A DNA stretch of 51,456 nucleotides, filler included, from Jimgerdemannia flammicorona (taxonomy: Eukaryota): the NCBI GenBank assembly GCA_003990765.1. It is 2 parts of 2 records of this genome, joined end to end, with 100 filler letters (N's around TTAATTAATTAA, not from the genome) between each part and the next. Parts side by side here need not be neighbours in the genome. Positions count along the whole stretch, not along the records: positions 25,787 to 51,456 come from RBNJ01000805.1; 1 more part is not named here. The stretch is one strand, 5' to 3'. Shown piece by piece: positions 3,599-51,456 of the stretch. The position numbers and the translations under genes are program-made. The notes below the pieces were generated by a model that saw only the letters and a list, made by a program, of their open reading frames with translations, had not been told where the DNA came from and did not search any database. The stretch's first letter is position 1. The number at the start of each line of letters is the position of its first letter.

Positions 3599-3629
3599 AA
3601 AGAATAATGATATATCATGGTCTCATCCT

Positions 3630-25686: not shown

Positions 25687-25786
25687 NNNNNNNNNNNNNN
25701 NNNNNNNNNNNNNNNNNNNNNNNNNNNNNNTTAATTAATTAANNNNNNNNNNNNNNNNNNNNNNNNNNNNNNNNNNNNNNNNNNNN
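25687..25786. other. Assembly gap with artificial six-frame-stop linker
   Basis: N44-TTAATTAATTAA-N44, exactly 100 nt, flanked by a G run and a 54-nt A run. Confidence 0.95.
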
Positions 25787-29005: not shown

Positions 29006-32000
29006 CTATTTAGTCCACCCATCCAACGTGCACTGGTTTTCAAGGGGGCTTTTGGCCTTTACTGCCTTCAACACATCAATTGTTTTCAGCTCGACAAAAT
29101 CCCTGGTGTTTGCACGATCTATCACAATGATCAGTTCTTTGCTTGCTGTATCATATCGGCTGGGGTGTCCCCTGAACTCGCACAGGTATGCAATGAGCAG
29201 GCCGATCGACGCAACGCCCAATTCTGCAGCTCTGCCGAACTTGCTGGCAAGACATTCGATGATGTCTTTCCTCTTCTCGGAGAATGTGTCATGTCGTGGG
29301 TTGTTGAAGAACATGCGAGGTGATACACTTCTGATGGCCTTATTGAAGTCGACAGTTGGTCATAACCTTGCCTGGACAAATACCGGGATCTTAACCGGGC
29401 TGTCAGGGTCTCTATTGTGGTAGACATTGATTACAAAGGTGATGTCAGGGCCCACCATCTTCTCCGGCAGAATGAACGGCAGTTTGGGATCATTGAGATA
29501 CGTGAGGAGGTCACCCGCCGCGCAGAGGTTCGGACAATCCACATTCCAGAGCCCAGTCAGGTGACGGTCTATTTCAATTCTGCTAGAAAACAACTTCGCG
29601 AGGTTGCCGTTGCCGATATAGGGCGAAAACAGCGGATGATCATGCAATCCCCCTTTCCTGCCATCAAACAGTTTTGACAGCAGCTCGAGCAGGTAGCATA
29701 TGAAAAGGTTCCCAAGATGGCTGGCATTCCATTGGTTCTTTCCGATCATTTTTAGTATCCTTCCAGTGACCGTCTTGTATGTTCATGCATATCGCAGATA
29801 TGCCATGACTGCTAACGGTTCGGATATTCCTGCCACCACCACAACGCCTTGCGAGCTCCGCTTGATCTTGTCGAGCCGCGCGAACCCAATCTCTACCGTA
29901 AGTGCAGTGTCTACGCTGTCCACAATGCTGCAGCCCGAGAAAAAGTGGCAGTCGATGATCGTGTCCTCCATATCCGCCCAGAAAGTCATTTCCGAAATAT
30001 GTGGAATCATCTGTGCCAGCTGGCCGACAATTTCACTCAAGGCCTCGTCACGCCATACTTCAACAAGAGCGTCCATGTCACCAGTCGTATGTTTGTCAGA
30101 GCTGTCAAAAGCACACTCCATATACTGGATGACATAGCGGTGACGACCGCGGATATACTCAAATATGGTGTTGGCCTGTCGCTCAGATAGAGTGCCCATA
30201 AACCACTCGATAAATAGCTTTATGTTGTTGACATCATTGAACCCATCTATTATGCAGATAAAGTCATCAGGCTGGATCATCTTGCCGGCCGCCACCACAC
30301 TGCCAGCATCAAGCTTCAGATCGTCTATGCGTAATCCGGTCCCAGACAGAACCGTGCATGTGCCGCAGTCCAGGTCCAAGACCATGCGCAGGAGGATTGC
30401 AAAGAAGGACCTTTTGTTTGTTGACGTTGTTGAATGAAACATATCAATATATTTGTCGACTGTGAGTTGTGCTTCGTCAATTGCAACTGGGACCTGTGCT
30501 TGATCTGGAATGTGGGCCTTGATCAACCCCCGTATCGTTGTCATGGTCTCCACGATTTATTCTTCAATGTCCCACCACTCCAACGACGTAAATGTCTTTG
30601 AGATCGTAACCCAGAAGTCATATGGATCCAGCCCGACATTCTTCGGAAGCAGTTGCATGAGCAGCCATATCTTTGGTGTAAAGGATTCTAGACCCAGCTG
30701 GAGCAGCTTGAGGAGAATGAATAGGCGGTCAGCCAGAACTGTGCGTATTTTGAAGAAGGCTGTGTCGCTGTTCTGCTGGTGCTGGCCTGCCTTTAGTTTG
30801 GGATACAACACACCTACTGCGGCGTCTAGATCGTGAGATCCCATATTCTTGCCAGTGTTCCCGGAGGCGAATGTGAGATATATGCCATATCGTTTGCATA
30901 GCAGCTCATAGACACTTCGCATTTGGGAAAGTCAGTGTCAATCGGACAGTAAAATCTACAGTGTACATCACCTCATATCACAATGCATGTTTATGCAAAA
31001 AAAACGACACTCACCCAGACATTCCAAGCAGCATGAATCAACTTCGCTCATTGGATTCTTTGATCAGCTTTCTGCATACATACCATTCCACATACCTGGT
31101 GTCATCTTCTAGATAAGGGAGACTGTGCAATATGAATTTGGGCAAATTGCTTCTCTTGTCGATTGAAGGAATGTTGGCATTAATGATGTAGGTTACACAG
31201 GGGTGATTGTTGATCTTGTAAGTATTCAGTGGAAATCCGGCAGTAATTATCGCAATAAACGACCTTTTCCAGGCTTTATACAGCACTTCGGCGGCGTCTT
31301 TGACCAGGTCGGCAGAAGGCTGGTATTCTACTTTGTAGGAGAATGGCTCTGGCGAAGGTATCCTTGCTGGCTCTGCATCAAGAGTTTTTTAGATAGGATG
31401 GTCAGACATATAACAGATGAGATGATGTTCAAAGTACACTTATATTGTTGTTGTGATAAATAAATACAATAGTTGATTGATTTAATGTTTGATTGATTAC
31501 AAGTGCCAGACTACATCTGAATACATTTCGGTACTATCGGGTCATGTATGTTCTCGTCATCATGCTGTTTCCACTTTGCACACTGTTTACTAACATTCTT
31601 AACCAAAAGCCCTGCGAGTAAAGTTGGCATGCCATTCAATAACTTTTGTTGTGATAGGCACAAGACCCTACCTAGCTTGTCACCACTATAAAGCATCGGC
31701 TTTGGCATGACAACTAATGGTTGGCGAACAAATGGCATGTTAGTCATCATCAATACGCGTAACCTGGTGTGTCAGCAGATGCATACTTGCCTGGTTTGTT
31801 TGCTTTGCAAGGTCGTCTCGCACGAGCGATAGATCGTGGCTCGACTGCAGGGGGTGCTACAATTGCAGGGTGCTGGACAACGATGTGAATGTGTTTGTCT
31901 GCAAGGTTGTTAGGGAAATATCGCCCAACTTTGTGCAGCGCGAGTAGCTTCATGCCTCCTAGCATCATCTCAATGTCAACATCGGTGGTAACCTCCAGGA

Positions 32001-32214
32001 GGGCGACCTCGTCAGATTCGTCGATAGGTATATCAACCTTCCAGAGCACAAGCTCATTTGCAGCAATATTGTCGAAATGCAGCATCATCTCTACCTTTAT
32101 CAATCTTTTGAAAGCTGCAATACTTTGAGTCATCTTGATTTCAACTTTGAAAGCACGTTCGGATAGAGGGGTGTCACCTTGAACCACGCAGTTGAGGGTT
32201 ATGGTAGTAGCCAT
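29006..32214 (-). pseudogene. Crinkler (CRN)-family gene: ubiquitin-like header + P-loop NTPase + PD-(D/E)xK-like C-terminus; multi-exon, with in-frame stops
   Basis: N-terminus MATTITLNCVVQGD..AFKVEI..ANELVLWKVDIP..HIHIVVQHP (LWKV and HIxV motifs of fungal CRNs); LLGMSG before an intron then RSVYELL (Walker A region, damaged); VAIDEAQ (Walker B); PEKMVGPDI...VFVQAR (REase-like). Stops at ~30554, ~29783 and ~29360. Confidence 0.85.
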
Positions 32215-32449
32215 GTTTGCAATGAGCAGTGTGCAGCATGTCAAAGCACATAACGGCAATTTGATGACTTCACGCGTTTGGTATGTGACATTGCTGCGAT
32301 TCGTCACACCCATAAAGTACAACCTGGCATAGTTGAATAAGTGTATAAGTCAGTCCCACAGATGCATCCTAGCATTTCAGTATTCCAGTATACAATATTG
32401 GAAAACCACACTCTATCCAACTATATGACAGATCCATGTTAGTAAAATA

Positions 32450-33019
32450 TAGTACTCTTAAAATAAATTAAATTAAGATCAATAACCTTTATTGTGCTAG
32501 ATTCTACTAGATACAAATATAATGAAGTATAATTTTTCAGTTATTAAATATCAAAAATTAAGGTTTAAATTGAACTAAAATTAAATTAGACCTCAGTTTG
32601 ATTTAAATTGAATTTACTTTCAATTTAATTAAAATATTTCAAATAAAATTAAATTGAAGTCAAATTTAATCTAGTTAGACAAATAATTATAATTTCAATT
32701 TAACTGAGAATATATAATAAGAATCTAAATAAATTAAATTAAATTAAAATTTAATAAAACTTAAGTTTAATTTTAGTTTTCACAATTTAATAACTTAGAA
32801 ATATATATATATTATAACTTATTTAGTTCATCTCATATAGAGAAATCTATTGTAACAAATTTAGATATATTTTAAATTAAATATAATATTAATTTAATTT
32901 GAACTATACTAAATTAGATATCAATTTTAACTTAAATTAAAAAATTCTTAATTCAATTTAATTTAACTCAATCTTAATTTAAAATAATTTAAATTTATTC
33001 AATTTGTTTCAAAGTATTA
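32450..33019. mobile_element. Degenerate AT-rich fold-back element related to the MITE at 6226-6509
   Basis: Ends TAGTACTCTTAAAATAAATTAAATT and (reverse complement) TAATACTTTGAAACAAATTGAAT resemble the MITE TIR; internal AGTTATTAAATATCAAAAATTAAGGTTTAAATT resembles MITE 6430-6460. No clean TSD. Confidence 0.55.
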
Positions 33020-33402
33020 ATATATAGTCAAGTTACTTATTCTGTTAAGTTATTAATCTATACTATTATATAATAATATCTAAATCAACTTTTATAATAT
33101 ATTTTAACTTTAATATTATTTGATATATTGAAGTAAAAAAGTATACTCTTATTATATCTTTTAATTATACTTTTATTTTATCTGATTAATATATTAATTA
33201 GTAAAATTTATATTAAAGTTAAAATTTATTTAAATATATATCTTATTTAGATCAATATATAGTTATTTATATATTTGAATAAATATATATAATATGATAG
33301 TTGATCTAAATTAAGAATATAAATCAGAGAAATAGATATTTAATTATGGTACCTAAATCCAATTTCTAAATATAGTATAACCTTATAAATAGTAGTTATT
33401 TT

Positions 33403-33495
33403 ATGAATGTTAAAGTTTTAGCAAATGTTAAACTCTTTGTAAATGTTACGATTTTGGCAATTATCAAAGATTTAGTAGATGTTGAAAGATTTGAT
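33403..33495 (+). repeat. ~18-bp degenerate tandem repeat, ~5 copies, upstream of the Gypsy LTR TATA box
   Basis: ATGAATGTTAAAGTTTTA / GCAAATGTTAAACTCTTT / GTAAATGTTACGATTTTG / GCAATTATCAAAGATTTA / GTAGATGTTGAAAGATTTG. Confidence 0.6.
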
Positions 33496-33859
33496 ACTTG
33501 TGAAAAGTAACTCACAACTTAGTCACCTTATAGCTAGCAAACTTATATAAATATCTCTAGTATCTAGAGTAAATAAACCTCAGATTAAAATATTTTAAAC
33601 TAAAGAAAAAGTAAAGGAACTAGTAAGTCTATAGGCAGATATACTTTGAACTCACCCACTCCTATATATATCTCAAGAACTCTACAAAGTCAAAGAAGAT
33701 CAAGTTTTTAAGATACAGAAATCTAATATAGTTATATAGTTATATATTTACTACATTACAACTTGGTGTCTATTGGCTGATGATTTCTCTCACTTTCAAA
33801 CTAAATAACAAATAACTGCTACTATCTGAATAACTATACAAATTGAATCAAGACATTTA

Positions 33860-34788
33860 GATAAGATAGATATAAGACTACCAGTATTCTACAGATATAT
33901 ATATCTCAGATGAATCAATTATTAACTTTATTGATAATTTTGAGTAGTATACTGCTTTAAGGACTCTGACAGCAGCACAGCAAGTAGTCCTCATGTCCTT
34001 CAGTCTATAAGGTCCTGCAAGAGCAGCATTTACAGCTGCAACCTATATAGGAAATAATGTTGATACTATACTGATAGCACAGAAGACCTAGCTCTAAGTT
34101 ATCTATAATGCAGATAAGATCAAGTAAGCTCTGAAAGATCAGCTCAATATAATATGCTAAGGAATGAGTAAGGATCCAAATACATTCTATACTAGAATTT
34201 GATATTAGATAATTTTTGCTGATTATACTGATGCTATCTGAGATCAAGTAGCTGAAGCAATCTTCATAAAAGGAGTTTACTCTGAGATAGTCATAGCTAT
34301 CTACTTTACCAATAGTCCTGGATCTAGTACAAAAGGTCACCTATGCTCTATAATATTAAATAGCCAGATATCTACAAGATCATACAATGGAAAGAGTTAC
34401 TGGAGTTAGAATTAAAGCACTCAAGATAACCAGTATAATCTCTACTGCAGTGATTAATCAAAACACATCTTAGCCAAAAGCTACTGAGCAGCAGAGAAAT
34501 AGTGACTCAATGGAGAAACTTGTTAAGAAGTTTGCTGAAATAATAGTCTATCTAAAAGATGTAGTAAAAGAAATTAAAGGAAGAGACTACCACCTAGTTC
34601 AAAAGTTTGCTACTACTGTAAACAAGAAGAGAGATACCTGCTATATCTGTGGAGAAGAAGGCCACTACTCATATAAATATATAAGCAAAACCAAACACAA
34701 GGCCCAGCTAAGCAATGCTACTCAAAATAAGGAACAGGTCAACATCATCACCTTCAAGGAGATTGGAGAATCAGATAAAGAAGAATAG
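33860..34788 (+). pseudogene. Gypsy gag relic with CCHC zinc knuckle
   Basis: LPVFY..ESIINFIDNFE..SL*GPARA capsid-like start; CYICGEEGHYSYKY with the last Cys mutated to Tyr. Confidence 0.78.
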
Positions 34789-35425
34789 AAAGCCTATCCT
34801 ATAGAGATTATTAAAAATGATGTCTATAAGCAACTTTATAAGAGACCACCAGAAAGACCCAAGAAGTACTCTGTAGAAAAATAGATAGAAACTGCTACAG
34901 AAAGCCGAGATAAAGAAATAGATCACTGGAATAGGCTATATAAGATATTATTCAAGGAACTACTCCAGCCAATAAAGAAGAAAAGAAGAAGAAGCTTTGC
35001 AAGACCAAGACTTTCAAATATAATATCTTCAAGGATCTTAGCCAACAGAAGGTCAATGCAACCTTCAGCTAGCTGGCAGAAATACTCACATTCAGATAGC
35101 AAATAAGATATAGACTTGCCAAGATAACTAAGAAGTAAGGTTGGAAGATAACTGATGCCAATAATATTTAAGCAGACTTTAGAAAAGAGAGTGAAAATAA
35201 TCATAAGACATCTGCCTATACAACCTATTAAATCAAAGATAGAATCTTTGAAGCAATTATTAACACTAGAGTAGGAGAATGTCTCCTCAGTAAAAAAGCA
35301 GTAGACTGCCTAGATTGGGAGGTTGAAGAAGTAACCAAATTAGCATCTTTCTCCAGTAACATTCAGGTTACATGATCCTTTGGCAATACTTTCGACACAG
35401 TTTCTGGAGAAAAGCTACTAGTATC

Positions 35426-37455
35426 ATGGCGACCAATGAGCATCCAGAGGTGCGTACTGGGCAGGGTGGCCCTGGAGCGTTTGAATGGCAGCAAGTGGGG
35501 AGAGGCCCCGGCTTGGGGGGAAGTATGAGGGGCCTGCTGGTGGGAGACCATGGTGATGGAAGGGGTGGAGCTGGGGGGCAAGGGTCTGGCAGAGTGAGCT
35601 TTGCGGAGAAGGTGAAGAGGGGTTGGCAAGGAGCTGGACTGGAGAGCTGGCTGAGAGGGGGGAAGGTACCAGTAGTGACTACCAGGCAGCAACCTCTTGG
35701 GGGTACCTCTCTGGAGGGCTATAGGGGTGGAGCTGGGGGGGTAGCACCTGGGGCGGAGACTGCTGATGGGGGTGTGACGGGCAATCTGGAAAACAATCTA
35801 GATGGGACTGCTGATGGTGAGCTGAGTGGTGGGAAGGGCATGAGGCCCAGGGACCTGGCAGATGGTGTAACAGGACTGGTGGTGGCTCTGTTACTCAAGA
35901 AATCAATCTCGGTGTTTGCAGTCACACTGTGCTTCAGGGGCTTGGCAGTGACAGTGAAAATAGTGTTGGGGCTTATCACTAAGCAGGTGGCAGGAGCAGC
36001 TTCGGTGAAGTTTCTGAAAGGACTGGAGGGAGTGAAGGTGGGTTTTGAGGAGGTTGAACCGCTGGAGGAGGTACTGAAAGTTGAGTTGGTGGTTGGGGAG
36101 GAGTGCATTCTGATGGCGAGGTGTTTGAAATAGGATCTGAGGGTGGTCCAATTGTTGGTAAAAGGAGTACCCACAGTGACAGCGATGGAGACAAGGAAGA
36201 GAGTGGAGGATTTCATGGCGGAGTACGGTGAGGTGGTGGATATCAGATTCCGGGTCTGGGAAGGGACCACTCTCAGGACTGGAGATGTGGACGTGAGGAT
36301 TCGGCTGGCTGGGAAAGAGGCTACTGGGAAGGCGTGGGACTGGTCTTCGGTGATGGTGTGGGGAGCTTTCCTGTGTAAGGTGACATGGGTGAAAGGAAGT
36401 GAAGAAGAGGAGGAAGATTTATTGGAGGCGCTGAAAGAACTGGATGGGGCTGTGGAGTGGCAAGCTAAGGCCTGGAAGACTTTCGAGGAGTTGACGCACC
36501 TGGAGGTGGTGGATGGCAAGAGGATTCAAGTGGACAAGGTGCAGTGAGAAAGGGCTCAGGGGCGGAAGAGGCAGAAGAATTTGCTGGCTAAACTGGGGGG
36601 TGGACTACAGAAGGAGACGAGCATGAAGTTGGGTGCAGAAGGGGCCAGGGCGAGTGTCTGGGCTGGTAAGAGAAGTGGGAACGATGGGACAGAGACAGGG
36701 AAGGCAACAGAGATGAGGATTAGCGACCCATATGCTGATGACACCTTGGAGGTGTGGGATGAAGTCTGGGAGAATTCCCCCTCCCCCTCCTCTCTTATCA
36801 GACGTGGCCCGGCTTCCAGGAATAAGTCTGGGGAGGATGTGACGATGCTGGGGACCCAGCAGGTGAAATTTGGCATTCCAGAGGTGATGAGTGGGGACCA
36901 AGTAGTGGCGGCCGGGGAGGAGGAACTGGTGGATGTCCCGGAGGTGTGGGATGAGGACACGAGTGCTGGAGCTGACACCATGATGCTGGATGGAGGGAGG
37001 CCGGCGACCCCTGGCAGAAAGGAGGTGGGGAACCTACTTTGGATGTGCTGGATGATGAATAACCTGGCAGCGGAAGAGCTGGGGGAGGTGGATTTGCGTG
37101 AGATGGGTGACAAGCACTGGACACGAATTCTGCAGGGGGAAGGAGTGGCAATGGCGCTGAAGGTGGAGATTCTCGCAGTATATCTGGAGGAGGAAGGGTA
37201 TGAGGTGGACAAGGAGCAGGAGGCAGAGTTGGTGGTTGTCACTGGGGAGAAGGCTGAGTACTGTTGGAACAGGCATCATGGGTTGCAGCTTTGGCAGGAG
37301 GCTTGCATTGAGTACCAAGAGGAGTTTAAGGAGAAGGCTGATGAGGGATGAATGAGCTGTTGGCTGGATTGGAGGCTCAGAGGGCTGAAGAGGAGGAGGT
37401 GATGGCTGAACATAATCTGGACATGGCACAGGAGAGGATGGGCATGGAGCAGTAG
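35426..37455 (+). pseudogene. LINE B ORF1
   Basis: ATG at 35426; ORFs 35372-36133, 36143-36547 and 36581-37351 are in one frame separated by stops; 1-bp deletion near 37347 relative to copy D. Confidence 0.9.
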
Positions 37456-37485
37456 GGATTGATTGTGAACAAACAGTATTTTATT

Positions 37486-40400
37486 ATGAACAGTACAACT
37501 AATATTTTTTCTTTGAACGTAAATGGGCTAAGGGGCGCCGTTAGATGCAGGAACATTTTTATTTGGTTGAAGGGATTGGAGGCCGATCTCTTCCTCTTGC
37601 AGGATGTCAGGTGTGAGGATGACTCTGATAGGATGGAATGGACAAAGGAATGGGGTGGAGTGACGATTTGGAATGGCAAGGTCGGGATTCTGGTTAGGAA
37701 AGGCAGAGGGGAGATACAGGATGTGAGGAGATGGGAGGAGAGACTGGTCTGGGGGGAGTGGATTGATGCCAGTTGGGAGCCAGTCACAGTTGACTCCTGT
37801 TACTGCTCTGCTGTGTGGGGGGAGTGGGTGGATTGGGTGAAAGGGCTCCTGGAGAGCGGGATCCTTGCTGAAGCTGGGTTGGATATGCTTAGTGGAGATT
37901 TCAATATGGTTAGGGATATACAGCTGGATAGAACTGATGGAGGACGGGGTGCTGAGAGCAGGAGTGGGGGGCTGATAATGTGGGAGGAGGTCAAAAGGCT
38001 AGAAGCGCTGGTGGATGCTGGTAGGGAGTGCTGGGGGGACAGGAGGTATATATGCATTGGGCTGGAGGGCTGGGGACAAGGATTGACTGGATTCTGACAG
38101 CTGAATATTGGGGCCGCAATATTTGGAAGGTACTAGAGGTGGAATAGTGTCCGTGGTCAGATCACTGGGGCCTTTTGGGACAGGGGTGTTTTGGGGGAAG
38201 TGGGGATGGGCCTGGACATTGGCACCTAAATTCCTCTTTGTTGGATGGTGAGTCTAGGTGGGAGGAGTGGGTAAAAGACATTCAGCTGAAGGTGGAGAAT
38301 TGGCAGCAGGAAGGGGCCACAATTGGGGTCTGGTGGATGAGTATGAAAGAGATGGCCAGGCTATACTGGAGCAAGGCTGGTGGAGTGGCTGGGAAGCAAT
38401 GAAGGTGGAAAGTGCATTGGGCTTCTACTAGATTGGCTAGGCTCCTGGAGGAGTGGGTGAGACTGGCAGTAGTGGAGAGAGAAGAGGATTGGAGAACATT
38501 GAGGGTGAAGATGGAGGTTGGGGAGCTACAACAAGTGCTGCGGGAAGAGGAAGAGCTAAGGATACAGGGCCTGGTGGCACAGCTGTGTTGGCAGGGGCTG
38601 GAGGAAGGGGAGAGGCCTTCCAAGTTTCTCACAAGAATACTTCGAGCGAGAAGGGTTCAGCAGCAGTGGGAAGGGGTACTGGACTCGGAGGGTATACTAG
38701 TGCATGGTGTACAGGATATCCTTGGAATGCTGAAGGTGCGGTGGAGTGGATTATGGAGTGAGGAGGAGGGTGGGGTGGATGCTACAGCCATTGAACAAAT
38801 GTTAGAAGATTAGCACCCACCACAAGCTGAGAGAGTAGGTGACCTGATGTTGCCTGTAACAGAGGACAAGATCCACCAGGTTCTTGCCGCGACAACCTTG
38901 GGTATAGCGCCTGGAGAGGATAGCCTACCCTGGGACTTCTGGAAGCGAATGGTTGGAGTCCCGGGCATGTTGGGGGAGTTGACAGCTCTGTGTGACTATA
39001 TATTGCAGTCAGGTGGATGGGAGGGGGAGCAGGATCTTGGGCTGGTGACGCTGCTTTATAAGAACAAAGGTAGGTGAGAGGATTGGAAGAATTGGTGGCC
39101 GATCATGCTGCTAGACATGGACAGAAAGTTGGTGACTAAGGTGGTGGTTGCGAGGCTACAGAAGGTCACCCAGTAAATTGTGGGTGCTGAGCAGAGGGGC
39201 TTCATAGGGGGTTGGCTTATTAGAGATGGCATGGCCTGGGTACATGGAGTTATTGAAGGTGCTCGAGCCTGTGGACTGGATGGGCATCTTGTCTTCATGG
39301 ACCAGGAGAAGGATTATGACCGGGTGCGGTGAGTTTGGCTGGCAAAAGTATTAGATAAAATTGGGGTTCTGGTTACATTTCAGTTGGTGATGGTAGGCCT
39401 ACTGGAAAGGAGTAGGGCTGCACTTGTGTGTAATGGGTATCAAGGGGTAGCATTCCCTCTGGGTAGGGGAGTGCCCCAGAGGGACCCACTGTCCCCCATT
39501 TTGTATGTTCTTTCTTTGGAACCACTAATGGACAGGATTCGGCGGAGGATAGTGAGGCTCTCTATCTATGGAGTTGGCTGGAAAGTTGGAGCCTTTGCAG
39601 ATGACATGGTGGTTGGTTTGGGAGTGACTGCTGATGTCGAGGAGCTCAAGAAGACAGTGGAGTGGTATGAGGAGAACTCGGGGGCGAAGCTGAATTGGCA
39701 CAAGTACGAAACAATGGTACTGGGCAATGGCCTGGTGGGCAGGGAGGTTATTGGAACAATTGTCCCCAGTGGGGAGGCAGTGCGGTACTTGGGCATCTAC
39801 TTGTCAGTTTATGGGTCTGTTCTGCCCAGACTGTGGTGGGAGCAGAGGATTGGAGTTTGGGAGGAGGATCTGTGGAGTTGGGGGGGAAGACACTTCTCTC
39901 TGACAGGAAGGATCTCGATTTGAATGTATACTGGCTGCCGAAGCTGTGGTATTTGGCTTATCATCTGGACTTCCCAGCCTGGGTGGTGAAGTGATTGGTG
40001 AAGGTGGCCAAAGGATGGATTTGGGCTGGCAGACGGAGTCAAATTGGTTGGGAGACTTTGTCCCTACCAGTGGCGAGAGGTGGTCTTGGGCTGGTGGACT
40101 TCCCCAAAAGACTACACTGCTTGAGGGCATGGTGGCTTAAGAGGGTGGTGGAGCTGCGTGGAGGGGGCTGGGTTCCCCTGCTGCAGATGGTCTGGGAGAG
40201 GCAGTCATCACCAAGAGGCTCGACGGGCAATCTTCTTTCATTAGTTGGGCTTCAGAACACTGCCCAACTGAGATATAGAGGCTTCTGGTGGGGGATAGCC
40301 AAGGGGGCACACTGCATTGGTATTCGCTGGTGAGGGGATGAGGGGGAGAGGGCTTGGGGCCCAGCGATGTGGAGATGGGATGGCATTCTTCTGGGAGGGG

Positions 40401-41140
40401 TGCCGTTACTTGAGTTCAACATTGGTGATGGAATCAAATGCCAGAGGGGACCGGGCCAGGATCTGTGGCATAGTGGTTGATAAGGAGTTGGAATTGGTGA
40501 GGAGTGGGACTGGCATGGGGTTTGGACCTGGAGTGCTGCAGTGAAAAATTGGATGCTGCTGAAGTACTGGGTGGTTTGGTGGCACATGCTGAGGAGGAAT
40601 ATAATGCTTAACTTCCACTCTGGACACCTTGTCATAGGGGGCTGTTTTGACTGTGAGGAGTGCCATAATGTAGGGCAGAAAGGGGGATTTGTACAGATGC
40701 CAGAACATTGGCTAGGGGAGTGTGAGGTGTTGGGAGACTTTTGGCAGGCCATTGGGGACTGCTTGGAGGTGAGGTGTAGAGGAGACAATGTACGGGGGAG
40801 GTGGGAGGACCTGAGGGATCAATTGGTAGGGGGGGTAGGGGAGGAGTGGATTACTTTAGGCTGGGCATTGGCTATTTGGGTTGGGCTGGCCAGTCATTGG
40901 CTTTTTGTATTTAAGGAGGAGAGGTGACAGAGCTTGGGGAGCAGGGTATCATGGTGGCAGTGTCTTATGGAGGATACCTTGACAGGCTGGTGGCTTGGTT
41001 GGGGGCTGCAGGGGGGTCAGAGGCGCTGCTTGGTGGTGAAAATCTGTGGTCAGAGTGGTGGGAGAGTTGGAGTTGTTGGTGAGAGGGTGATCTTTATACG
41101 TGGAGAGGTGGGGAGGGGCCCCCCAATGGGGATCGGATAG
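37486..41140 (+). pseudogene. LINE B ORF2 (APE-RT-Cys/His motif)
   Basis: SLNVNGL, LQDV, GDFN, SDH; GVPQRDPLSPILY, GAFADD, YLG; CEEC...EHWLGEC. Confidence 0.93.
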
Positions 41141-41814
41141 TGGGGGTGATATTGTATAATTATTCATAGACTGGTAATAAAGATGGAGTCCAAGGGACTA
41201 TAAAAAAAAAAAAAAAAAAAAAAAGAAGTAACCAAATTAGTATTTATCATAGTAGATAGCACAAGAGCCACATCTCTGAGAAAGATCCAAGATATTCCCA
41301 TTAAGTTTGGAAGAGTAACTATTCCAGTAGATATGATTATAACTAATGCTACCAACTATGTCATCCTCATCAGTAGCCAGTGGCATTATAAAGTCAGAGC
41401 AATAATTGACCTTAATGTCTAGAAGATACAAATTATTTACTGAGATCAGAAGATACAAATTCCCATCAATTTCAATAAAAGAGTGCTGTCTGAGATAGAG
41501 AAAGAAGAAAGTAAGCAAGAAGAAACCTATATAGTGACTATTCAAAAAAAGAAAAAGAAAGTCAGATGGATCAGTAAAGAAGAATAGTATAAAAGGATCA
41601 TTAAAGGATATGTACCACAAGGAGTCTGTCCTCACAGAATCAAGATGTACTATATGAAACATATTGATGATTGCTATCAGTACATCAGTGGAATCAAGAA
41701 AATCTACTATAAAAAAGACAGAAAAGTCTCAAGAAACAAGCAAGATAAGAAAAGGAGAAGGAAGAGGATGACAAACCACCAGCTCTCCTAGAGGACAGTG
41801 ATGATGAAGAAGAA

Positions 41815-42225
41815 ATCAAGATCAAGATTGGGAAAATCCACTCCGATGCAGTTCTACCAGAATATAAGTCAGAGAATATAGCTAGAATAGATATTACCAC
41901 AGTAGAGAAAACTGAACTGGAGCCCCAGACAACTACTCTACTTATATCTAGTCTGGAGATGACTATTCTAAAAGACTATATCAGAATTCTCAAGACAAGA
42001 AGCAGCCTAGCCAAGAGTGAGATTATTATCAAAAGAGAAGTTATCAATTCAGACTATATTGGAGAAATACTACTTTTACTAGAAACTACAACTCTATAAT
42101 TCCATTTCCAATTAAGAAGAAAGACTGATTGATACAGATATTGATCTTCCCAGTTCTTTAGCCAAAGATCATAGAAGTCAAGAAGTTGGAGGAAATGGAA
42201 AGAGGAAGTATTCACCAGTACCAAG
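41815..42225 (+). pseudogene. dUTPase domain within the Gypsy pol, between protease and RT
   Basis: KIHSDAVLPEYKSENIARIDI (motif 1, AGxD), TRSSLAK (motif 2), REVINSDYIGEI (motif 3, GVIDSDYxGE), and after a frameshift KD*LIQILI (motif 4, GDRxAQ) and EEMERGS..FTST (motif 5). Confidence 0.85.
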
Positions 42226-42329
42226 ATTATAGAACTAGACCATAAGAAGGAGAAAACTACAAATAAGTATAGCTATATCTTGGAAATGAATTTCTACTCA
42301 AGAAGGAACTCAAGAAGATACTGTATGTA

Positions 42330-43605
42330 TTTGACAATATCCTAGCCACAGACTTCAAGAATATCAAGAAAAAGACTCCACACTACTATTATAATATAGA
42401 CATAGAAGATATCAAACCTATCTACCAAAAAGTAAGACCAATTCCACCAGTCTATCATGAATAGCTCAGAGAAGAAATCAAGCAGATGGAAGAAGCTAGT
42501 ATTATTAAAGAAACCAGTAGCCCTTGGGCTTCACCAGTTATATTAGCTCTAAAGAAAGGAAGTGAATTAGGAGAATTTACCCTGAGGCTCTATACTAATT
42601 ATAGGAAGCTCAATCTGGTCAAAAAGAAGAATTACCAACTACTGCCCCTCATCAGTGACTTCCTTATAACTCTGGGAGATAAAGCACAGTATTACAGTAT
42701 CTTGGATTTATACTCAGAATTCTACCAGATTGATCTTACTAAAGCAGTAAGTGAAAAATCAGTCTTCATTACCTCAGACAGAACTTATATCTATCTGCAA
42801 ATACTATTAGAAATATATAATGTACTAGCAAGCTTTCAGTAAATGATGAACAAAATTTTCTGCAATGATATGAGAAGATAGATGATGGAGAAGCTAAGGA
42901 AGTATAGTCTTTATATCAAGTAAGTTTGCAGAAATTAAGATCTCCTACCTTGATCACATTATTAACTGAGATAGAATACATACAGACTCTCTCAAGATTT
43001 AAGTAGTAATAGCATACTCAAGGTCCACCACTGTCACTGAAGTCCAAGCCTTCATGAGATTTGCCTCATATTATTATAGATTTATCAGAGAATTCTCTAA
43101 CATCACAGAACTAATTTATAAACTCAATAAGAAGAATATTAAGTTTCAATTGACTGGTAGGCAACAAAACGTATTTGATGAAGTCAAGATCAGACTGACC
43201 CAAGCACCTATCCTCAGAGGACCTGATTGGACTCAAGAATTCATCCTGCAGACAGATATAAGTACACAGGGACTAGGAGCAGTTCTGGTATAGAAAAAAG
43301 ACAAAGTAGTGTATATCATTATATATCTCAGCTGAGGGATCTGAGGAGCTGAAAAAGAATATGAATCCTATAAGTTGGAATGTCTCATAGTCATCTGGGC
43401 TATAGAAAAGTTCCACTACTACCTTACCAGAAGACACTTTATCATCCAGACAGACTATTCAGCCCTCATCTGACTACTGACCACTGGGCAATCGAAAGGA
43501 ATCTATGTCAGATGGATTATGAAGTTGCAAGCTTATAACATAACCATCATACACTATCCTGGAAGAATCAATATCAATACAGATACCCTCTTACAGATAC
43601 TCTGA
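42330..43605 (+). pseudogene. Gypsy reverse transcriptase + RNase H relic; YxDD region apparently deleted
   Basis: KPIYQKVRPIPP..EEIKQMEEASIIKETSSPWASPV; FMRFASYYYRFIREFS; FILQTDISTQGLGAVL; KLECLIVIWAIEKFHYYL; IQTDYSAL. Confidence 0.88.
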
Positions 43606-43705
43606 AAGACCCTCAACTAGTAAATTAATTATGAATAAGGAACTCTACTATAGATTTATCACCTACCTGGGACAGTGAAAGATGCCACAATATCTAGAAG
43701 AATAG

Positions 43706-44439
43706 TGTAACAAATCAAAACATACTACCTGAATTATAACTTATCCAGATGATGCAAACAATTAGCATATGTAACTAGATGATGTGGGTTCTAGTGTATC
43801 ATAGTTACTCATGCCCACCACACTTATAATTAGCCAGACATACCAGATAGGATCTGTTTACCTGTACAGGTCCTGTACACTGTACAGACTCTGTACACCT
43901 GCTATAAGTAGCAGATCTATAGTTAGCCACATAGTAACCAGATAGCAACCAACTTGTATAAATTACTCCAGAGACAAGAGTAAATAAACCTCAGGCTAAA
44001 ATATAAACCAAAGAAACCTCTAAAGATTGAGCATTGGTCCCCTTTTCACTCCAGTCCACTTTCTGATACAAAGCTTGAAGATTTTGCCACCAAGTTTGAG
44101 TGAAGAACTTTGCCACCTTTGGAATTATTGGTATGCTTGCCAGACTAAGCCTGAAGAATCTGCCACTTAAGGAATAAGCTGCGCTATTGGTACACTTACT
44201 AGACTAAACCTGAAGAATCTGAGTTTGCTGCCAAAAGTTCTAGGAAGAACTTTACTGCCATTTTCAAGAAGTCTGTCAATTCCGGAGGATCTGTGTCATC
44301 TACTATTTCCAAGTTATTCACTGCATTCCCAGAAAGCCATCTTGCTCAAGCCAGTTTCTGACACAACTTTGCAGTGATTCATTTGTACAAATGAAGTCAG
44401 TCTTTGACACAACTTTACTAAGAGACCCTTTCCCATGAC
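43706..44439 (+). mobile_element. Second LTR inserted downstream of the Gypsy RNase H, itself interrupted by LINE C
   Basis: Starts TGTAACA; ACTTGTATAAAT...GAGTAAATAAACCTCAG core resembles 33541-33583 but the flanks differ; short internal repeats (AGACTAARCCTGAAGAATCTG twice). Confidence 0.62.
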
Positions 44440-45871
44440 CTTTCACCAGTAACATTCAGGTGACACAAGACTCAGACAATACTTTTTACAATGTTTTTAG
44501 TGATAGACAACTATCGACATGGATGGCAATAATCAAACTGGTGAGCATACTGGCCAAGAGAGCAGTGGTGCCTTTGGTTGACAGCAAGTGGGGAGGAGGG
44601 GAGATGGTGTGGGGATGCCAGGGGCCTTGATGGCTGGCTGAGGTTCTGGTGGTGGAGGGAGGGGTGGCCTGAGGCAGCAAGGAGGGGAGAGGTCAACCTT
44701 TGCTGACAAGGTCAAGATGGGGAGAATGGCCTCTGGACTGGATGGTTGGCTGGGCCTGGGGAAGGTGTTGATGGCTACTGCTGGGGGACAGAGAGGAGTG
44801 CCCAGGGGAGTGTCCGGTGGTAGGGGAGGGGGGGGAGTAGGGGCTGGAGATGTGACTGTTGATGGGGCTGTGACTGGGGATCTGGAAAAAAATCCAGATG
44901 TGACAGTGGTTGCTGGTTTGGGACCGGAGGGGGGCACAAGGCCTGGGGACCTCACGGATGGGGTGATGGGCATAGTGTCAGCACTGTTACTCAAGAAATC
45001 AAGGTCAGAATTCACCATCACAATGTGTTTCAGGGGCTTGGCAGTGACTGTGAGGATGATCTTGGGGCTGGTAGTGCAGGAGGTGAAAGGGGCAGCATCA
45101 GTGAAGTTTTTGAAGGGGAAAGAAGGGGTCGAGGTGTGGTTTGAGGAAGAAGAGGCATTGCTGACTGCCATGGAGAAGGGGGTGACAGTGGGCGGGGTTG
45201 TGGTCCCTATGGCAAGGTGCATGCACTGGGACCCCTGAGTGGTGTAGTTGATGGTGTTGGATCTTCCTACAGTATCACAGGAGAGTGCTAGGGAGTTGAT
45301 TGTGGAGGCAGTCAAGGAGTATGGAGAGATAGTGGATGTCGGGTTCAAGGTCTGGGAGGGTATAGAGCTCTGGACTAGTAATATTGATGTCTGGGTGAGG
45401 CTGGCTGGTAAGGAGAACATGGAGAAGACAAGGGACTGGCCAGTGACTCTGAAGTGAGGACTGGTGGAGTGCAAGGTCACAAGGGTGAAGGGGACTCAGG
45501 AAGAGGAGGAAGACTTGCTTGAAGCTCTGGAGGATCTGGAAGGAGTGGTCGAGAGGAGGAGATTGGCTTGAAAGGAGTATGAGGTCAGGACAGTGGTGGA
45601 AGAAGTCGATGGGAAGAGAGTTAGGACGGATCAGGTGGTCTGGGGGAAGATGCAGGAGAGGAAAATCCAGAAGAAGCTGCTGGTGAAGTTGGGCAGCAGT
45701 GGGGCAAGCAGCAGTACAGAGGATGGGAAAGCAGGATTGCAGGAGAGTGCCTGGATGGGGGGGAGCAGGAGGACCCAAGGTGGGGCACAGGATGGATTGA
45801 GAGAGGAGAGGGTTGGCAGTGTGGAGGCAGATATGGAAATGAGCAAAGGTGTATACTCTCATTACTCAGCC
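44440..45871 (+). mobile_element. LINE copy C (divergent subfamily): 5' UTR and partial ORF1, interrupted by copy D
   Basis: 5' motif CTTTCACCAGTAACATTCAGGT; ORF1 homology DLTDGVMGIVSALLLKKS..GAASVKFLKG..EYGEIVDVGF; breaks off at the 5' end of D. Confidence 0.88.
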
Positions 45872-45950
45872 CTTTCTCCAGTAACATTCAGGTTATACAA
45901 TCCTTTGGCAACACTTTCAACATGGTTTCTGGAGAAAAGCTACTAGTATT

Positions 45951-47979
45951 ATAGCGACCAACGAGCATCCGGAGGTGCGTACTGGGCAGGGTGACCCTGG
46001 GGCATTTGAATGGCAACAAGTGGGGAGAGGCCCCAGCTTGGGGGGAATTATGAGGGGCCTGCTGGCAGGAGGCCGTGGTGGAGGAAGGGGTGGAGCTGGG
46101 GGTCAAGGGTCTGGCAGAGTGAGCTTTGAGGAGAAGGTGAAGGGGGGTCGGCAGGGAGCTGGACTAGAGAGCTGGCTGAGAGGGGGGAAGGTACCAGTGA
46201 CGACTACCAGGCAGCAACCTCTTGGGGGTACCTCTCTGGAGGGCCATAGGGGTGGAGCTAGGGGGGTAGCAGCTGGGCAGAGACTGCTGATGGGGGTGTG
46301 ACTGGTGATCTGGAAAAAAATCTAGATGGGACTGCTGATGGTGAGCCGAGCGGTGGGAAGGGCATGAGGCCTAGGGACCTGGCAGATGGTATAATGGGAC
46401 TGGTGGTAGCTCCGTTACTCAAGAAGTCGATCTTGGCGTTCACAGTCACACTGTGCTTCCGGGGATTAGCAGTGACGGCGAAAATGGTGTTAGGGCTTAT
46501 TGCTAAGCAGATAGCAGGAGCGGCTTCAGTGAAGTTTCTGAAAGGGCTGGAGGGGGTGGTGGTGGGTTTTGAGGAGGTTGAACCACTGGAGGAGGCACTG
46601 AAGGTTGGGTTGGTAGTTGGAGAGGTGTGTGTTCTGATGGCAAGGTGTTTGAAATGGGATCCGAGGGTGGTCCAATTGTTGATAAAAGGAGTACCCATGG
46701 TGACAGCGATGGAGACAAGGAAGAGAGTAGAGGATGTCATGGCAGAGTACGGGGAGGTGGTGGATATCAGGTTCAGGGTCTAGGAAGGGACCATGCTCAG
46801 GACTGGAGACGTGGATGTGAGGATTAGGCTAGCTGGGAAAGAGGCTACTGGGAAGGCGAGGGACTGGTCTTCGGTGATGGTGTGGGGAGCGTTCCTGTGC
46901 AAGGTGACATGGGTGAAAGGAAGTGAAGAAGAGGAGGAAGATTTATTGGAAGCACTGGAAGAACTGGATGGGGCTGTGGAGCAGTGAGCTAAGGCCTGGA
47001 AGACTTTCAAGGAGTTGACACACCTGGAGGTAGTGGATGGAAAGAGGATTCAAGTGGACAAGGTGCAGTGGGAAAGGGCTCAGGGGCGGAAGAGGCAGAA
47101 GGATCTGCTGGCTAAACTGGGGGGTGGACTACCAAAGGAGGGGAGCATGAAGCCAGGTGCAGAAGGGCCGGAGCGAGTGTCTGGGCTGGTGAGAGGAGTG
47201 GGAACGATGGGGTGATGACAGGGAAGGCAAAAGAGGTGAGGATTAGCGACCCATATGCTGATGGCACCTTGGAGGTTTGGGATGAAGGCTGGGAGGACTC
47301 CCCCACCCCTTTCCCTCTTATCAGACATGGCCCGGCTTCCAGGAACAAGTCTGGGGAGGACATGATGATGCTGGGGACACAGCAGATGAAATTCAGCATC
47401 CCGGAGGTTATGGATGGGGACCAAGAAGTGGTGGCTGGGGAGGAGGAACTGGTGGACATCCTGGAGGTGTGGGATGAGGATGCGAGTGCTGGAGCTGACA
47501 CCACGATGATGGATGGAGGGCGGCCAGCAACCCCTGGTGGGAAGGAGGTGGGGAACCTACTTTGGATGTGTCGGATGATGAATAACCTAGCGGCGGAAGA
47601 GCTGGGGGAGGTGGACTTGCAAGGGATGAGTGACAAGCACTGGATGTGAATTCTGCAGAGGGAAGGAGTGGCGATGGCCCTGAAGGCAGAGATTCTTGCA
47701 GTGTATCTGGAGGAGGAAGGGTATGAGGTGGACAAGGAGAGGGAGGCAGAGTTGGCGGTTGTCATGGGGGAGAAGGCTGAGTACTGTTGGAACAGGTGTC
47801 ATGGATTGCAGCTCTGACAGGAGGCTTGCATTGAGTACAGAGAGGAGTTTGAGGAGAAGGCTGATGAGGAGATGAATGAGCTGCTGGCTGGATTGGAGGC
47901 TCAGAGGGCTGAAGAAGAGGAGGTGATGGCTGAACATAATCTGGACATGGCACAGGAGGGGATGGGCACGGAGCAGTAG
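45951..47979 (+). pseudogene. LINE D ORF1
   Basis: Fragments 45975-46301, 46298-46783, 46793-46987 and 47212-47649 align with B ORF1. Confidence 0.9.
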
Positions 47980-48009
47980 GGATTGATTGAGAACAAACAG
48001 TATTTTATC

Positions 48010-51000
48010 ATAAACAATACAACCAACATTTTTTCTTTGAATGTCAAAGGGCTAAGGGGCGCCAGTAGGTGCAGGAACATTTTTATTTGATTGAAGGGAC
48101 TGGAGGCTGATCTCTTCCTCTTGCAGGATGTCCGGTGTGAGGATGATTCTGATAGGATGGAATGGACTAAGGAATGGGGTGGAGAGGCGATTTGGAATGG
48201 CAAGGTAGGGATTCTGGTTAGGAAAGGCAGAGGGGAGATAAGGGATGTGAGGAGCTGGGGGGAGAGACTGGTCTGGGGTGAGTGGATTCATGCCAGTTGG
48301 GAGCCAGTTACTGTTGGCTCCTGTTACTGCCCCACTGTGCGGGGGGAGTGTGTGGATTGGGTGAATGGGCTCTTAGAGAGTGGGATCCTTGCTGAAGCTG
48401 GGTTGGATATGCTTGAAGGGATTTCAATATGGTTTGAGATGTACAGCTAGATAGAACTGATGGAGGACAGGGGGCTGTGAGCAGGAGTGGGGGGCTGGCA
48501 ATATGGGAGGAGGTCAAAAGGCTAGGAGCGCTGGTAGATGCTGGTAGGGAGTACTGGGGGGACAAGAAGGTATATATGCATTGGGCTGGAGGGCTGGGGA
48601 CTAGGATTGACTGGATTCTGATGGCCAACTGTTGGGGCTGTGATGTTTGGAAGGTGCTTGAGGTGGAATGGTGTCCGTGGTCCGATCACTGGGGCCTTTT
48701 GGGACAGGGGTGTTTTGGGGGAAGTGGTGAGGGGCCTGGACATTGGCGCCTAAATTCCTCCTTGTTGGATGATGAGTCCCAGTGGGAAGAGTGGGTGATA
48801 GACATTCAGCTGAAGGTGGAGAAGTGGTGGCAGGAAGGGGCCGCAATAGGGGTTCTGTGGATGAGGATGAAAGTGATGGCCAGGGTATACTGGAGTGAGG
48901 CTGGCAGAGTGGCTGGGAAGCAGCAAAGGCGGAGGGTACATTGGGCTTCTACTAGATTGGCTAGGCTCCTGGAGGAGTGGGCGCGACTGGCAGTAGTGGA
49001 GGGTGAAGAGGATTGGAGAACAATGAGGGTGAAGATGGAGGTTGGGGAACTGCAACAAGTGCTGCGGGAAGAGGAAGAGCTGAGGATACAAGGCCTGGTG
49101 GCAAGGCTGCAGTGGCAGGGGCTGGAGGAAGGGGAGAGGCCTACCAAGTTTCTCACAAGGACACTTCGAGCAAGAAGGGTTCAGCAGTGGTGGGACGGGG
49201 TACTTGACCTAGATGGTGTACTAGTGCATGGTATACAGGATATCCTTGGAACCCTGAAGGCGTGGTGGAGTGGATTGTGGAGTGAGGAGGAGGGTGGGGC
49301 AGATGCTACAGCCATTGACCAAACATTAGAAGATTGGCGCCCACCGCAAGCTGTAGGGGTGGATGATCTGGTGCTGCCTGTAAAGGAGGATGAAATCTGC
49401 CAGGTTCTTGCTGCGACAACCTCAGGTATGGTGCCTGGAGAGGATGGCCTACCCTGGGACTTCTGGAAGCGAATGGCTGGAGTCCCAGGCATGTTGGGGG
49501 AGTTGACAGCACTGTGTGACTTTATATTGCAGTCAGGGAGATGGGTGGGGGAGCAGGATCTTGGACTGGTGACACTGCTTTATAAGAACAAAGGAAGGTG
49601 AGAGGATTGGAAGAATTGGCGGCCGATCATGTTGCTAGATATGGATAGAAAGTTGGTGACTAAGGTGGTGGTCACAAGGCTACAGAAGGTAGCCCAGCAA
49701 ATTGTCGGAGCTGAGCAGAGGGGCTTCATAGGGGGTCAGCTTATTAGAGATGGCATGGCCTGGGTACATGGAGTTATTGAAGGTGCTCGAGCCTGTGGAC
49801 TGGATGGGTGTCTTGTCTTCTTGGACCAGGAGAAGGCTTATGACCAGGTGTGGCAAGTCTGGCTGGCGAAAGTATTGGATAGAATTGGGGTTCCGGTCCT
49901 GTTTCAGTCGGTGATGGTCAGTCTACTGGAAAGGAGTAGGGCTGCGCTTGTGTGTAATGGGCATAGAGGGGTTGCATTCCCTCTGGGTAGGGGAGTGCCC
50001 CAGGGGGACCCACTGTCCCCCATTTTGTATGCTCTTTCTTTGGAACCTCTAATGGACAGGATTCAGCGGAGGATTGTGGGGCTATCTATCTATGGAGTTG
50101 GCTGGAAAGTTGGAGCCTTTGCAGATGACATGGTGGTTGGTTTGGGAGTGACTGCTGATATTGAGGAGCTCAAGAAGACGGTGGAGTGGTATGAGGAGAA
50201 CTCTGGGGCGAAGTTGAATTGGCACAAGTGCAAAACAATAGTGCTGGGCAATGGCCTGGTGGGCGGAGAGGTTATTGGAACAATTGTCCCCACCGGAGAG
50301 GCAGTGCCATACTTGGGCATCTATTTGTCTGTTTATGGTTCTGTTCTGCCCAGGCTGTGGTGGGAGCAGAGGATTGGAGTTTGGGAGGAGGACCTGTGGG
50401 GTTGGGGGGGAAGACACTTCTCTCTGGCAGGGAGGATTTCGATTCTGAATGTATACTGGCTGCCAAAACTGTGGTATTTGGCTTATCATCTGGACTTCTC
50501 GGCCTGGGTGGTGAAGAGATTGATGAAAGTGGCCAAAGGATGGATTTGGGCTGGCAGATGGAGTCAAATTGGTTGGGAGACTTTGGCCCTACCAGTGGTG
50601 AGGGGTGGTCTTGGGCTGGTGGACTTCACCAAAAGACTGCACTGCTTGAGGGCATGGTGGCTTAAGAGGGCAGTGGAGTTGCATGGAGGGGGCTGGGTTC
50701 CCCTGTTGCAGAAGGTCTGGGAGAGGTGGGCATCACCAAGAGGCTCGACTGGCGATCTCCTTTCATTAGTTGGACTTCGGAACACTGCCCAACTAAGATA
50801 TAAAGGCTTCTGGTTAGGGATAGCCAAGGGGGCACACCACATTGGTATTTGCTGGCGAGGGGATGAGGGGGAGAGGGCTTGGGGCCCAGCGATGTGGAGA
50901 TGGGATGACATCATTCTGGAAGGTGTGCCTTTACTTGAGTTCAACATTGGTGATGGAATTGAATGCCAGAGGGGACCAGGCCAGGATCTGTGGCCTAGTG

Positions 51001-51456
51001 GTTGGCAAGGAGTTAGAATTGGTGAGGAGTGGGACTGGCATGGGGTTTGGACCTGGAGTGCTGCAGTGAAGAATTGGTTGCCGCCGAAGTACTGGGTGGT
51101 TTGGTGGCACATGCTGAGGAGGAATGTAATACTTAACTTCTGCTCAGGACACCTTGTAGTAGGGGGCTCTTTTGACTGTGAGGAGTGCCATAATGTAGGG
51201 CAGGAAGGGGGATTTGTACAGACACTCGACCATTGGCTAGGGGAGTGTGAGGTGTTGGGAGACTTTTGGCGGGCCATTGGGGACCGCTTGGGGGTGAGGC
51301 ATAGGGGAGATAATGTACGGGGGAGGTGAGAGGACCTGAGGGATCGATTGGTAGGAGGGGTAGGGGAGGAGTAGATTACTTTAGGCTGGGTGTTGGCTAT
51401 TTGGGTTGGGCTGGCTGGTCACTGGCTATTTGTATTTGAGGAGGAGAGGCAACAGA
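48010..51456 (+). pseudogene. LINE D ORF2 (APE-RT)
   Basis: RIDWI, SDH; 566-aa open segment with LDQEKAYD, GVPQGDPLSPILY, GAFADD, YLG and CEEC..DHWLGEC. Confidence 0.94.

Follow-up and report, generated by a model that had tools for sequence, protein, structure and literature searches.

A dUTPase domain between protease and reverse transcriptase in a dead fungal Ty3/Gypsy copy, probably inherited with its lineage

Introduction

To what element does a dUTPase-like coding segment in the genome of Jimgerdemannia flammicorona belong, does it still encode an enzyme, and was it captured by this copy or inherited with its lineage? We asked these questions of the window, the whole 51,456-nucleotide stretch of DNA analyzed here, in which the segment lies 3' of an acidic run and 5' of a reverse transcriptase (RT).

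Retrotransposons with a dUTPase have been described before. In the portions of the paper available, the Gypsy families of Postia placenta are reported to carry dUTPase at the N terminus of Pol, at its C terminus, or in the interval between protease (PR) and RT (PosPlaTy3-5); the same text cites earlier dUTPase reports, on elements of Phanerochaete chrysosporium and Tuber melanosporum, and it suggests that the domain was acquired independently (PMC2864245). The presumed role of the retroviral enzyme is to lessen uracil in cDNA (Payne and Elder, cited via PMC2864245). The available text of two further papers places dUTPase between PR and RT in the bdelloid rotifer elements Juno, Vesta, and TelKA (PMC5408684) and in planarian giant Gypsy elements (PMC6431247). 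In Entomophthora muscae, according to the accessible part of a bioRxiv preprint, dUTPase is enriched along with retroviral protease domains, and the available text of a stripe-rust preprint names dUTPase in its reference list alone. As far as these sources extend, the PR-dUTPase-RT layout of Gypsy elements is already published for P. placenta, fungi generally, bdelloid rotifers, and planarians. The original prediction for this locus, made from the sequence by a model, had called dUTPase sporadic in LTR retrotransposons, a view that the published layouts do not bear out.

Results

A decayed dUTPase domain in the window

An open frame of 116 codons (ORF 41749-42096), which holds motifs 1 to 3, matched the Pfam dUTPase profile PF00692 with an E value of 9e-8 and 32.4 bits (cut-off, 22). 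This match covers profile positions 3 to 77 of 129, the N-terminal 60%, and the profile check that had been proposed was positive. Taken by itself, the stretch expected to hold motifs 4 and 5 (42087-42248, with X for each stop) had no Pfam match. The domain had been described as invisible in the ORF track; this is true of the remainder, which is broken by stops and frameshifts, but not of motifs 1 to 3. In tblastn, a protein of 232 residues (P0001) aligned with the window across the linker and dUTPase domain at 57-58% identity (E value of 3e-60, 58% over 137 residues), and P0002 aligned across the protease tail, linker, dUTPase domain, and RT. Together with the alignments of P0003 (Table 1), these matches support a Gypsy retroelement with a dUTPase between PR and RT. 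Its surroundings, an acidic linker before the domain and an RT from ~42330 after it, are also as originally predicted.

Table 1. Positions of the Gypsy remnants, dUTPase motifs, and LINE-like sequences in the window
Feature	Position	Strand	Evidence or remark
Candidate 5' LTR, LTR-like repeat just 5' of gag	33278-33786	+	Limits approximate
gag remnant	33900-34866	+	tblastn, P0003 residues 12-337, two frames, joint E 8e-37
CCHC zinc knuckle in gag remnant	~34636-34671	+	zf-CCHC weak: E 0.0042, 17.6 bits, under the 20.8 cut-off
Aspartic protease region, N-terminal part	35019-35342	+	Truncated by LINE; tblastn, P0003 residues 397-519, E 2e-9
LINE-like non-LTR retrotransposon inside protease	35343-41224	+	~5.9 kb; foreign to the Gypsy element
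Protease remainder	41225-41584	+	tblastn, P0003 residues 499-617, E 6e-22 (aligned from 41231)
PR-dUTPase linker	41585-41814	+	Aligned to P0001 and P0002
Cys/His motif in linker, decayed, GVCPHRIKMYYMKHIDDCYQY	41621-41683	+
Acidic run EDSDDEEE	41791-41814		Directly before dUTPase segment
dUTPase-like coding segment	41815-42225	+
dUTPase by P0003 mapping	41815-42069	+
Motif 1, IARIDI	41878-41895
Motif 2, TRSSLA	41995-42012		Intact
Motif 3, REVINSDYIGEI	42034-42069		Asn where 24/24 relatives have Asp
Motif 4, KD*LIQ	42120-42137		Different frame, TGA stop inside
Motif 5	42201-42206		Just R-G left
RT and RNase H remnant	42330-43614	+	tblastn, P0003 residues 1036-1487, two frames, joint E 1e-89
RT by P0003 mapping	42330-42860
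RT-RNase H by P0003 mapping	42907-43599
Integrase ORF leader (IMNKELYYRFITYLGQ...)	43511-43702	+	Separate overlapping ORF; tblastn with L081 integrase ORF, E 2e-7
LTR-like core with TATA box and AATAAA, candidate 3' LTR remnant	43929-44016	+	77% identity over 92 bp to 33517-33608, E 5e-13
Second LINE-like sequence	44437-51456	+	Ends recognizable Gypsy tail; foreign to the Gypsy element

The motifs are named as is general for trimeric dUTPases. All five had been reported in order. Motifs 1 to 4 are indeed recognizable, but the core of motif 5, GFGSTG, is deleted in the window copy: in the tblastn alignment, nothing in the window corresponds to EQGFGSTG of P0002, and the frame shifts at the same point. 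The stretch formerly read as motif 5, ERGSIHQYQ, is an out-of-frame read-on. The tblastn path runs in frame +2 through the protease tail and linker (41333-41716, matched by P0002 residues 1-128), in frame +1 through motifs 1 to 3 (41779-42096), and in frame +3 from 42081 to ~42206, through motif 4 with its TGA stop, a second stop, and then E-R-G, of which R-G belongs to motif 5. After the motif 5 gap, it is in frame +1 again (EEVFTSTKIIELDHKK...) and then in frame +3 into the RT. The domain thus holds two stops (42126-42128 and 42159-42161) and several frameshifts besides. The window copy does not have five conserved motifs: its motif 3 Asp is changed to Asn, motif 4 contains a stop, and the motif 5 core is deleted. 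Judged from its sequence, the domain is dead and cannot act enzymatically. With these lesions, a protease split by a LINE, and no detectable integrase core, the window copy cannot carry out the role proposed below for intact members.

The surrounding Gypsy copy

The domain lies in a broken Ty3/Gypsy copy at ~33.3-44.4 kb of the window. The remnants of this copy follow the order gag, PR, dUTPase, RT, RNase H, and of the integrase the ORF leader alone is present. In the tree described below, its RT-RNase H is placed with Gypsy loci that bear an integrase, and it matched Pfam RT_RNaseH_2 (E value of 5e-25) and RT_RNaseH (E value of 7e-25), while RVT_1 was absent from the Pfam results in every frame of the RT remnant. 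Beyond the leader, tblastn with the L081 integrase ORF never gave an E value better than 4.6 in the window; the integrase core of this copy is deleted or unrecognizable. The plus strand at 41.2-44.4 kb is AT rich (GC, 0.33-0.37) and A rich and contains many stops.

The point at which the LINE-like element entered the protease is fixed by a perfect 16-bp target-site duplication (GAAGTAACCAAATTAG, 35327-35342 and 41225-41240). This element has a poly-A run at its end, from ~41203, and its ORFs, read by eye, resemble a non-LTR endonuclease and RT. The 5' end of the second LINE-like sequence, at 44437, resembles the one at 35343 and is equally G rich.

We read two stretches, 33278-33786 and 43929-44016, as candidate LTR remnants, of which the core alone is statistically secure. 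The first aligned with the reverse complement of 9343-9839 at 70% identity over 519 bp (E value of 3.5e-50). Most differences in that alignment are transitions, and purine/pyrimidine agreement reaches 0.90-0.96 in the best 50-column blocks. TATAAAT and AATAAA, read from the sequence, lie within ~40 bp of each other in this stretch. Outside the 92-bp core shared by 33517-33608 and 43929-44016, LTR homology was not demonstrable. A long 3' LTR was considered and rejected: transition-tolerant local alignment of 32000-33950 with 43560-44520 scored 140, and shuffles had a mean of 110.7 and a maximum of 143.5.

Relatives with the domain in the same place

When ORF 41749-42096 was compared with longer proteins, there were two matches among 981 candidates. 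P0001 was 66% identical to the ORF (E value of 1.9e-37). P0002 (514 residues; E value of 2.5e-20) has both RVT_1 and dUTPase and, in a single frame, a protease tail, a Cys/His linker, an acidic run, a five-motif dUTPase, and RT. The one-frame arrangement of PR, dUTPase, and RT foreseen for intact copies is thus seen in relatives of this kind. P0002 in turn matched 244 longer proteins at an E value of ≤1e-10 among 8000 candidates scored. PF00692 was found in 21 of the best 120 of these 244, including all of the top 14. Pfam domain coordinates were taken for 19 PF00692-bearing proteins, and 10 of these 19 have the order PR-dUTPase-RT (P0003-P0011 and P0014); P0012 and P0013 are cut and yet consistent with it. 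Elsewhere the dUTPase lies 3' of RNase H (P0015), before PR in a chromodomain element (P0016), after integrase (P0018, P0020, and P0031), or between RNase H and integrase (P0074), and P0019 is a badnavirus polyprotein with a dUTPase. The relatives' domains matched the whole PF00692 profile with 73-117 bits. The best Atlas scores of P0002 (0.88, 0.84, and 0.80, all <0.9) give leads only, and we rejected their "Viruses, Uroviricota" labels as not credible for retroelement polyproteins.

A metagenome scan with RNase H alignment A3 matched 471 stretches, of which 380 were confirmed, and we used the best 80 of the 380. A dUTPase was present in 15 of these 80 loci. In every case in which the metagenome sequence includes both flanks, among them all 7 loci that hold the three domains, the dUTPase sits between PR and RT. 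Scans with single proteins confirmed none of 18 pattern matches in metagenomes (P0011) and none of 8 in viral contigs (P0003), and in a viral contig scan with alignment A1 the 80 loci kept matched just residues 784-1047 of the query, its dUTPase portion, and were left out of the later analysis. With 10 proteins and 15 of the best 80 metagenome loci carrying the domain, the segment is not an insertion missing from its relatives. Statements about the family as a whole rest on relatives of 43-66% identity.

Of four long loci tested, L081 has no terminal direct repeats; the other three, L083, L087, and L100, have them at a spacing of 7.8-8.1 kb. Short tandem repeats with units of 20 and 28 nt in 4-6 copies sit in the noncoding ends of these intact relatives (L083:499-658, L087:7401-7520, and L100:7316-7455). 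The PR-dUTPase linker of many relatives has a Cys/His motif, G-x-C-x-H-G...C-x-x-C (A1 consensus, columns ~1210-1295), which no Pfam family covers.

Trees of RT-RNase H and of dUTPase

Of the 76 rows in the RT-RNase H tree, 25 show the layout (14 loci, 10 proteins, and the window). Another 41 lack it, 6 of these carrying a dUTPase at a different place, and the remaining 10 are loci too short upstream; 27 of the 80 metagenome loci were left out since they had no single long RT-RNase H match. A single group of 31 rows (SH-aLRT, 92) takes in all 25 that show the layout, along with 5 rows that could not be judged and L125. The trait requires 1 change across the 66 scored rows. The window row lies inside the group, closest to L081 and P0003, and its exact place is unsure because its branch is very long (1.63) and its composition odd; no starred set contains it. 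L125, next to the clade, has an open PR-RT linker of 319 codons. A relic dUTPase suspected there by eye was rejected: Pfam gave nothing relevant, and the hhalign probability was 0.3%, no better than that of 5 shuffles. If L125, which has no detectable dUTPase, is a member of the clade, either a loss or a later gain must be assumed for it. As far as these sequences tell, the PR-dUTPase-RT layout is common to the whole lineage, and the domain is not a one-off. The original prediction of an independent capture by this element is not supported, with a single change among the 25 rows with and 41 rows without the layout.

A library-wide search with the dUTPase domain retrieved 28,414 proteins at an E value of ≤0.001. 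Nearest to it are standalone dUTPases of ~140-160 residues (45-54% identity), together with a few fragments of retroelements and proteins in which three dUTPase repeats stand in tandem. The top-scoring matches (P0123-P0131 and others) are ~370-770 residues long with two or three tandem repeats, and these tandem-repeat proteins were excluded from the trees. A search of proteins of near length gave 29 matches. The dUTPase-only tree is nearly without resolution (7 of 100 inner branches starred) and scatters the PR-dUTPase-RT domains, whose 27 rows need 12 changes. In a 51-row set under a simpler model, the free tree needed 8 changes; placing the 19 PR-dUTPase-RT domains in a single clade cost 50 log-likelihood units and was not rejected (p-AU, 0.12).

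Catalytic conservation and alternative readings

Among 24 PR-dUTPase-RT domains, the motif 1 Asp is present in 23, the motif 2 Arg and Ser in 23 each, the motif 3 Asp in 24 and Tyr in 22, and the motif 4 Gln and the motif 5 Arg and G-F-G-S in all 24. Mean column identity over the whole polyprotein is just 34%. That catalytic positions are kept in 22 to 24 of 24 domains despite this divergence we take as a sign of purifying selection on catalysis in the relatives. The best match of the P0002 domain among solved dUTPases was a shrimp cellular enzyme (E value of 3.5e-24, 88.5 bits), with the motifs aligned. It scored 52.5 bits against chain 1dut, which we take to be the FIV dUTPase.

Could this lineage maintain the domain not for dUTP hydrolysis but for, e.g., a structural or regulatory role? 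Dispensing with catalysis has precedent, for dUTPase-like proteins with noncatalytic roles are known elsewhere, and the conserved Cys/His motif that precedes the domain may point to a further function. However, the near-complete conservation of catalytic positions in the 24 relatives and the strong matches to active solved enzymes make this unlikely. A second alternative is that part of a dUTPase gene, from a host or a virus, entered this one Gypsy copy and is uninformative on the family. Just one dUTPase-bearing copy is visible in the window, and the closest standalone dUTPases (47-54% identity) are about as similar to the domain as many retroelement ones. Such an entry is nonetheless contradicted, as far as sequence comparison goes, by the alignments of P0001 through linker and domain and of P0002 from the protease tail into the RT, by the layout of the relatives, and by the single trait change on the RT-RNase H tree, and we consider it extremely improbable.

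The integrase raises a different doubt, namely, whether the element is a pararetrovirus-like retroelement that never had one and not a Gypsy retrotransposon. This was suspected from proteins ending after RNase H: the eight closest full-length proteins (P0003-P0009 and P0011) start at gag, stop ~55 residues or less past RNase H, and have no integrase domain. One protein has a weak caulimovirus-peptidase match, and no integrase core was found in the window. The metagenome DNA refutes it for the lineage, since an integrase lies there in a separate frame. In all 14 dUTPase-bearing loci that reach that far, an integrase ORF lies 105-288 bp 3' of RNase H, out of frame with it (offset of 1 or 2) and with stops between, and all 6 such downstream ORFs searched had Integrase_H2C2 and rve. 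In L081, ORF1 spans 1486-5967 and the integrase ORF 5816-7075 in the next frame, with an ATG overlapping the ORF1 stop. The window retains the leader of this ORF, the rest being missing or unrecognizable. An origin without integrase is thus very unlikely. The element remains best read as Gypsy. Integrase is in frame with RNase H, with no stops between, in 18 of 56 other loci, which form a more distant clade. The dUTPase clade, like its sister groups, has a separate overlapping integrase frame after a single Gag-PR-(dUTPase)-RT-RNase H ORF. A chromodomain, the mark of chromoviruses, was found in 0 of 10 downstream ORFs of relatives scanned, 6 of which are integrase ORFs.

Discussion

The segment is very probably the dUTPase domain of a dead, fragmented fungal Ty3/Gypsy copy, inherited within a lineage and not captured by this copy. 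Intact members encode Gag (with CCHC), PR, linker, dUTPase, RT, and RNase H in one long ORF and the integrase in a separate overlapping frame. Their dUTPase domain would be produced within the polyprotein, form the usual homotrimer, and convert dUTP to dUMP and PPi at the site of reverse transcription. Uracil would then be kept out of the cDNA, which host uracil-DNA glycosylase would neither nick nor degrade. The benefit may be greatest in nondividing cells, where host dUTPase is expected to be low. Hydrolysis of dUTP, trimer formation, and the gain for cDNA are what the intact domains of the relatives suggest.

The original prediction also tied the dUTPase to cytosine-deamination-type decay of this genome, a link that we find weak. 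The CpG observed/expected ratio is 0.89 in the genic part of the window, 0.04-0.07 in the Gypsy pieces, and 0.23-0.27 in the LINE and Copia sequences, and the RIP ratio (CpA+TpG)/(ApC+GpT) in the Gypsy pieces is 1.16-1.28, which is not lowered. CpG depletion with an unlowered RIP ratio argues that the decay is CpG-directed deamination of chromosomal repeats. A dUTPase lowers the incorporation of dUTP (U:A pairs) during cDNA synthesis and has no effect on chromosomal cytosine deamination. Thus, the CpG decay is unrelated to dUTP incorporation in reverse transcription, and neither explains the other.

Among known systems, PosPlaTy3-5 shares the fungal host, the LTR/Gypsy backbone, and the PR-dUTPase-RT order, as compared by published description in the part of that text available. 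Other placements described for fungal elements there are also found among our proteins, before PR (P0016) and after integrase (P0018, P0020, and P0031) (PMC2864245). Juno, Vesta, TelKA, and the planarian elements likewise have dUTPase between PR and RT of a Gypsy-like pol; in the accessible descriptions, these differ by their animal hosts and, in many, by env-like or other third ORFs (PMC5408684 and PMC6431247). In Juno, as described there, the domain is followed by an additional Zn knuckle; in the present lineage it is preceded by a Cys/His motif. Betaretroviruses, nonprimate lentiviruses, and ERV-L have the same enzyme family in a retroelement polyprotein, with the same presumed uracil-lowering role (PMC2864245), but with other RT lineages and at other pol positions, according to the original prediction and the available text (PMC5408684). 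Cellular and large-DNA-virus trimeric dUTPases in the PDB share the five motifs with our intact relatives (E values down to 3.5e-24) but are free-standing proteins of ~140-170 residues; in the present lineage, the domain is one part of a polyprotein 1,263-1,608 residues long.

The locus adds one more fungal host for Gypsy elements with a dUTPase between PR and RT. Taken with the metagenome relatives, it shows a domain that became fixed a single time within a sizeable clade and has stayed catalytically intact, which argues that control of dUTP is a real advantage for LTR retrotransposons outside the retroviruses. A further-reaching proposal, which we regard as doubtful, is that this clade is a distinct, undescribed fungal Gypsy lineage, abundant in environmental metagenomes, with a single Gag-PR-dUTPase-RT-RNase H ORF, integrase in a separate overlapping frame, and a conserved Cys/His (C-H-C-C) module directly upstream of the dUTPase, in which the dUTPase was fixed once against uracil-based cDNA restriction in slow-growing or dormant fungal cells.

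Other features of the window

Two ORFs support a fungal host. One, at 22860-23249 (+), matched the fungal Zn(2)-Cys(6) binuclear cluster with 21.8 bits, barely over the cut-off of 21, and is followed by a coiled-coil-like ORF (23218-23679). The other, at 31753-32349 (-), has a Crinkler effector N-terminal domain (Pfam E value of 2.7e-19), and its nearest Atlas clusters are from Mucoromycota and Basidiomycota. Further ORFs lie 3' of it on the same strand to ~29000; those following it (e.g., 29786-30556) had no Pfam match. A run of unknown bases at ~25690-25740, seen as 16 X in an ORF translation, probably marks a gap in the assembly. At ~5828-7433 (-), a heavily decayed remnant of Copia type matched Retrotran_gag_2 (E value of 1e-7) and, weakly, gag_pre-integrs, and it was apparently truncated by the LINE-like sequence at 1-5700. 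That sequence (-) is one of three LINE-like stretches in the window, with 35343-41224 (+) and 44437-51456 (+), whose coding strands are extremely biased, with 39% G and 15% C, a GC skew of ~+0.45.
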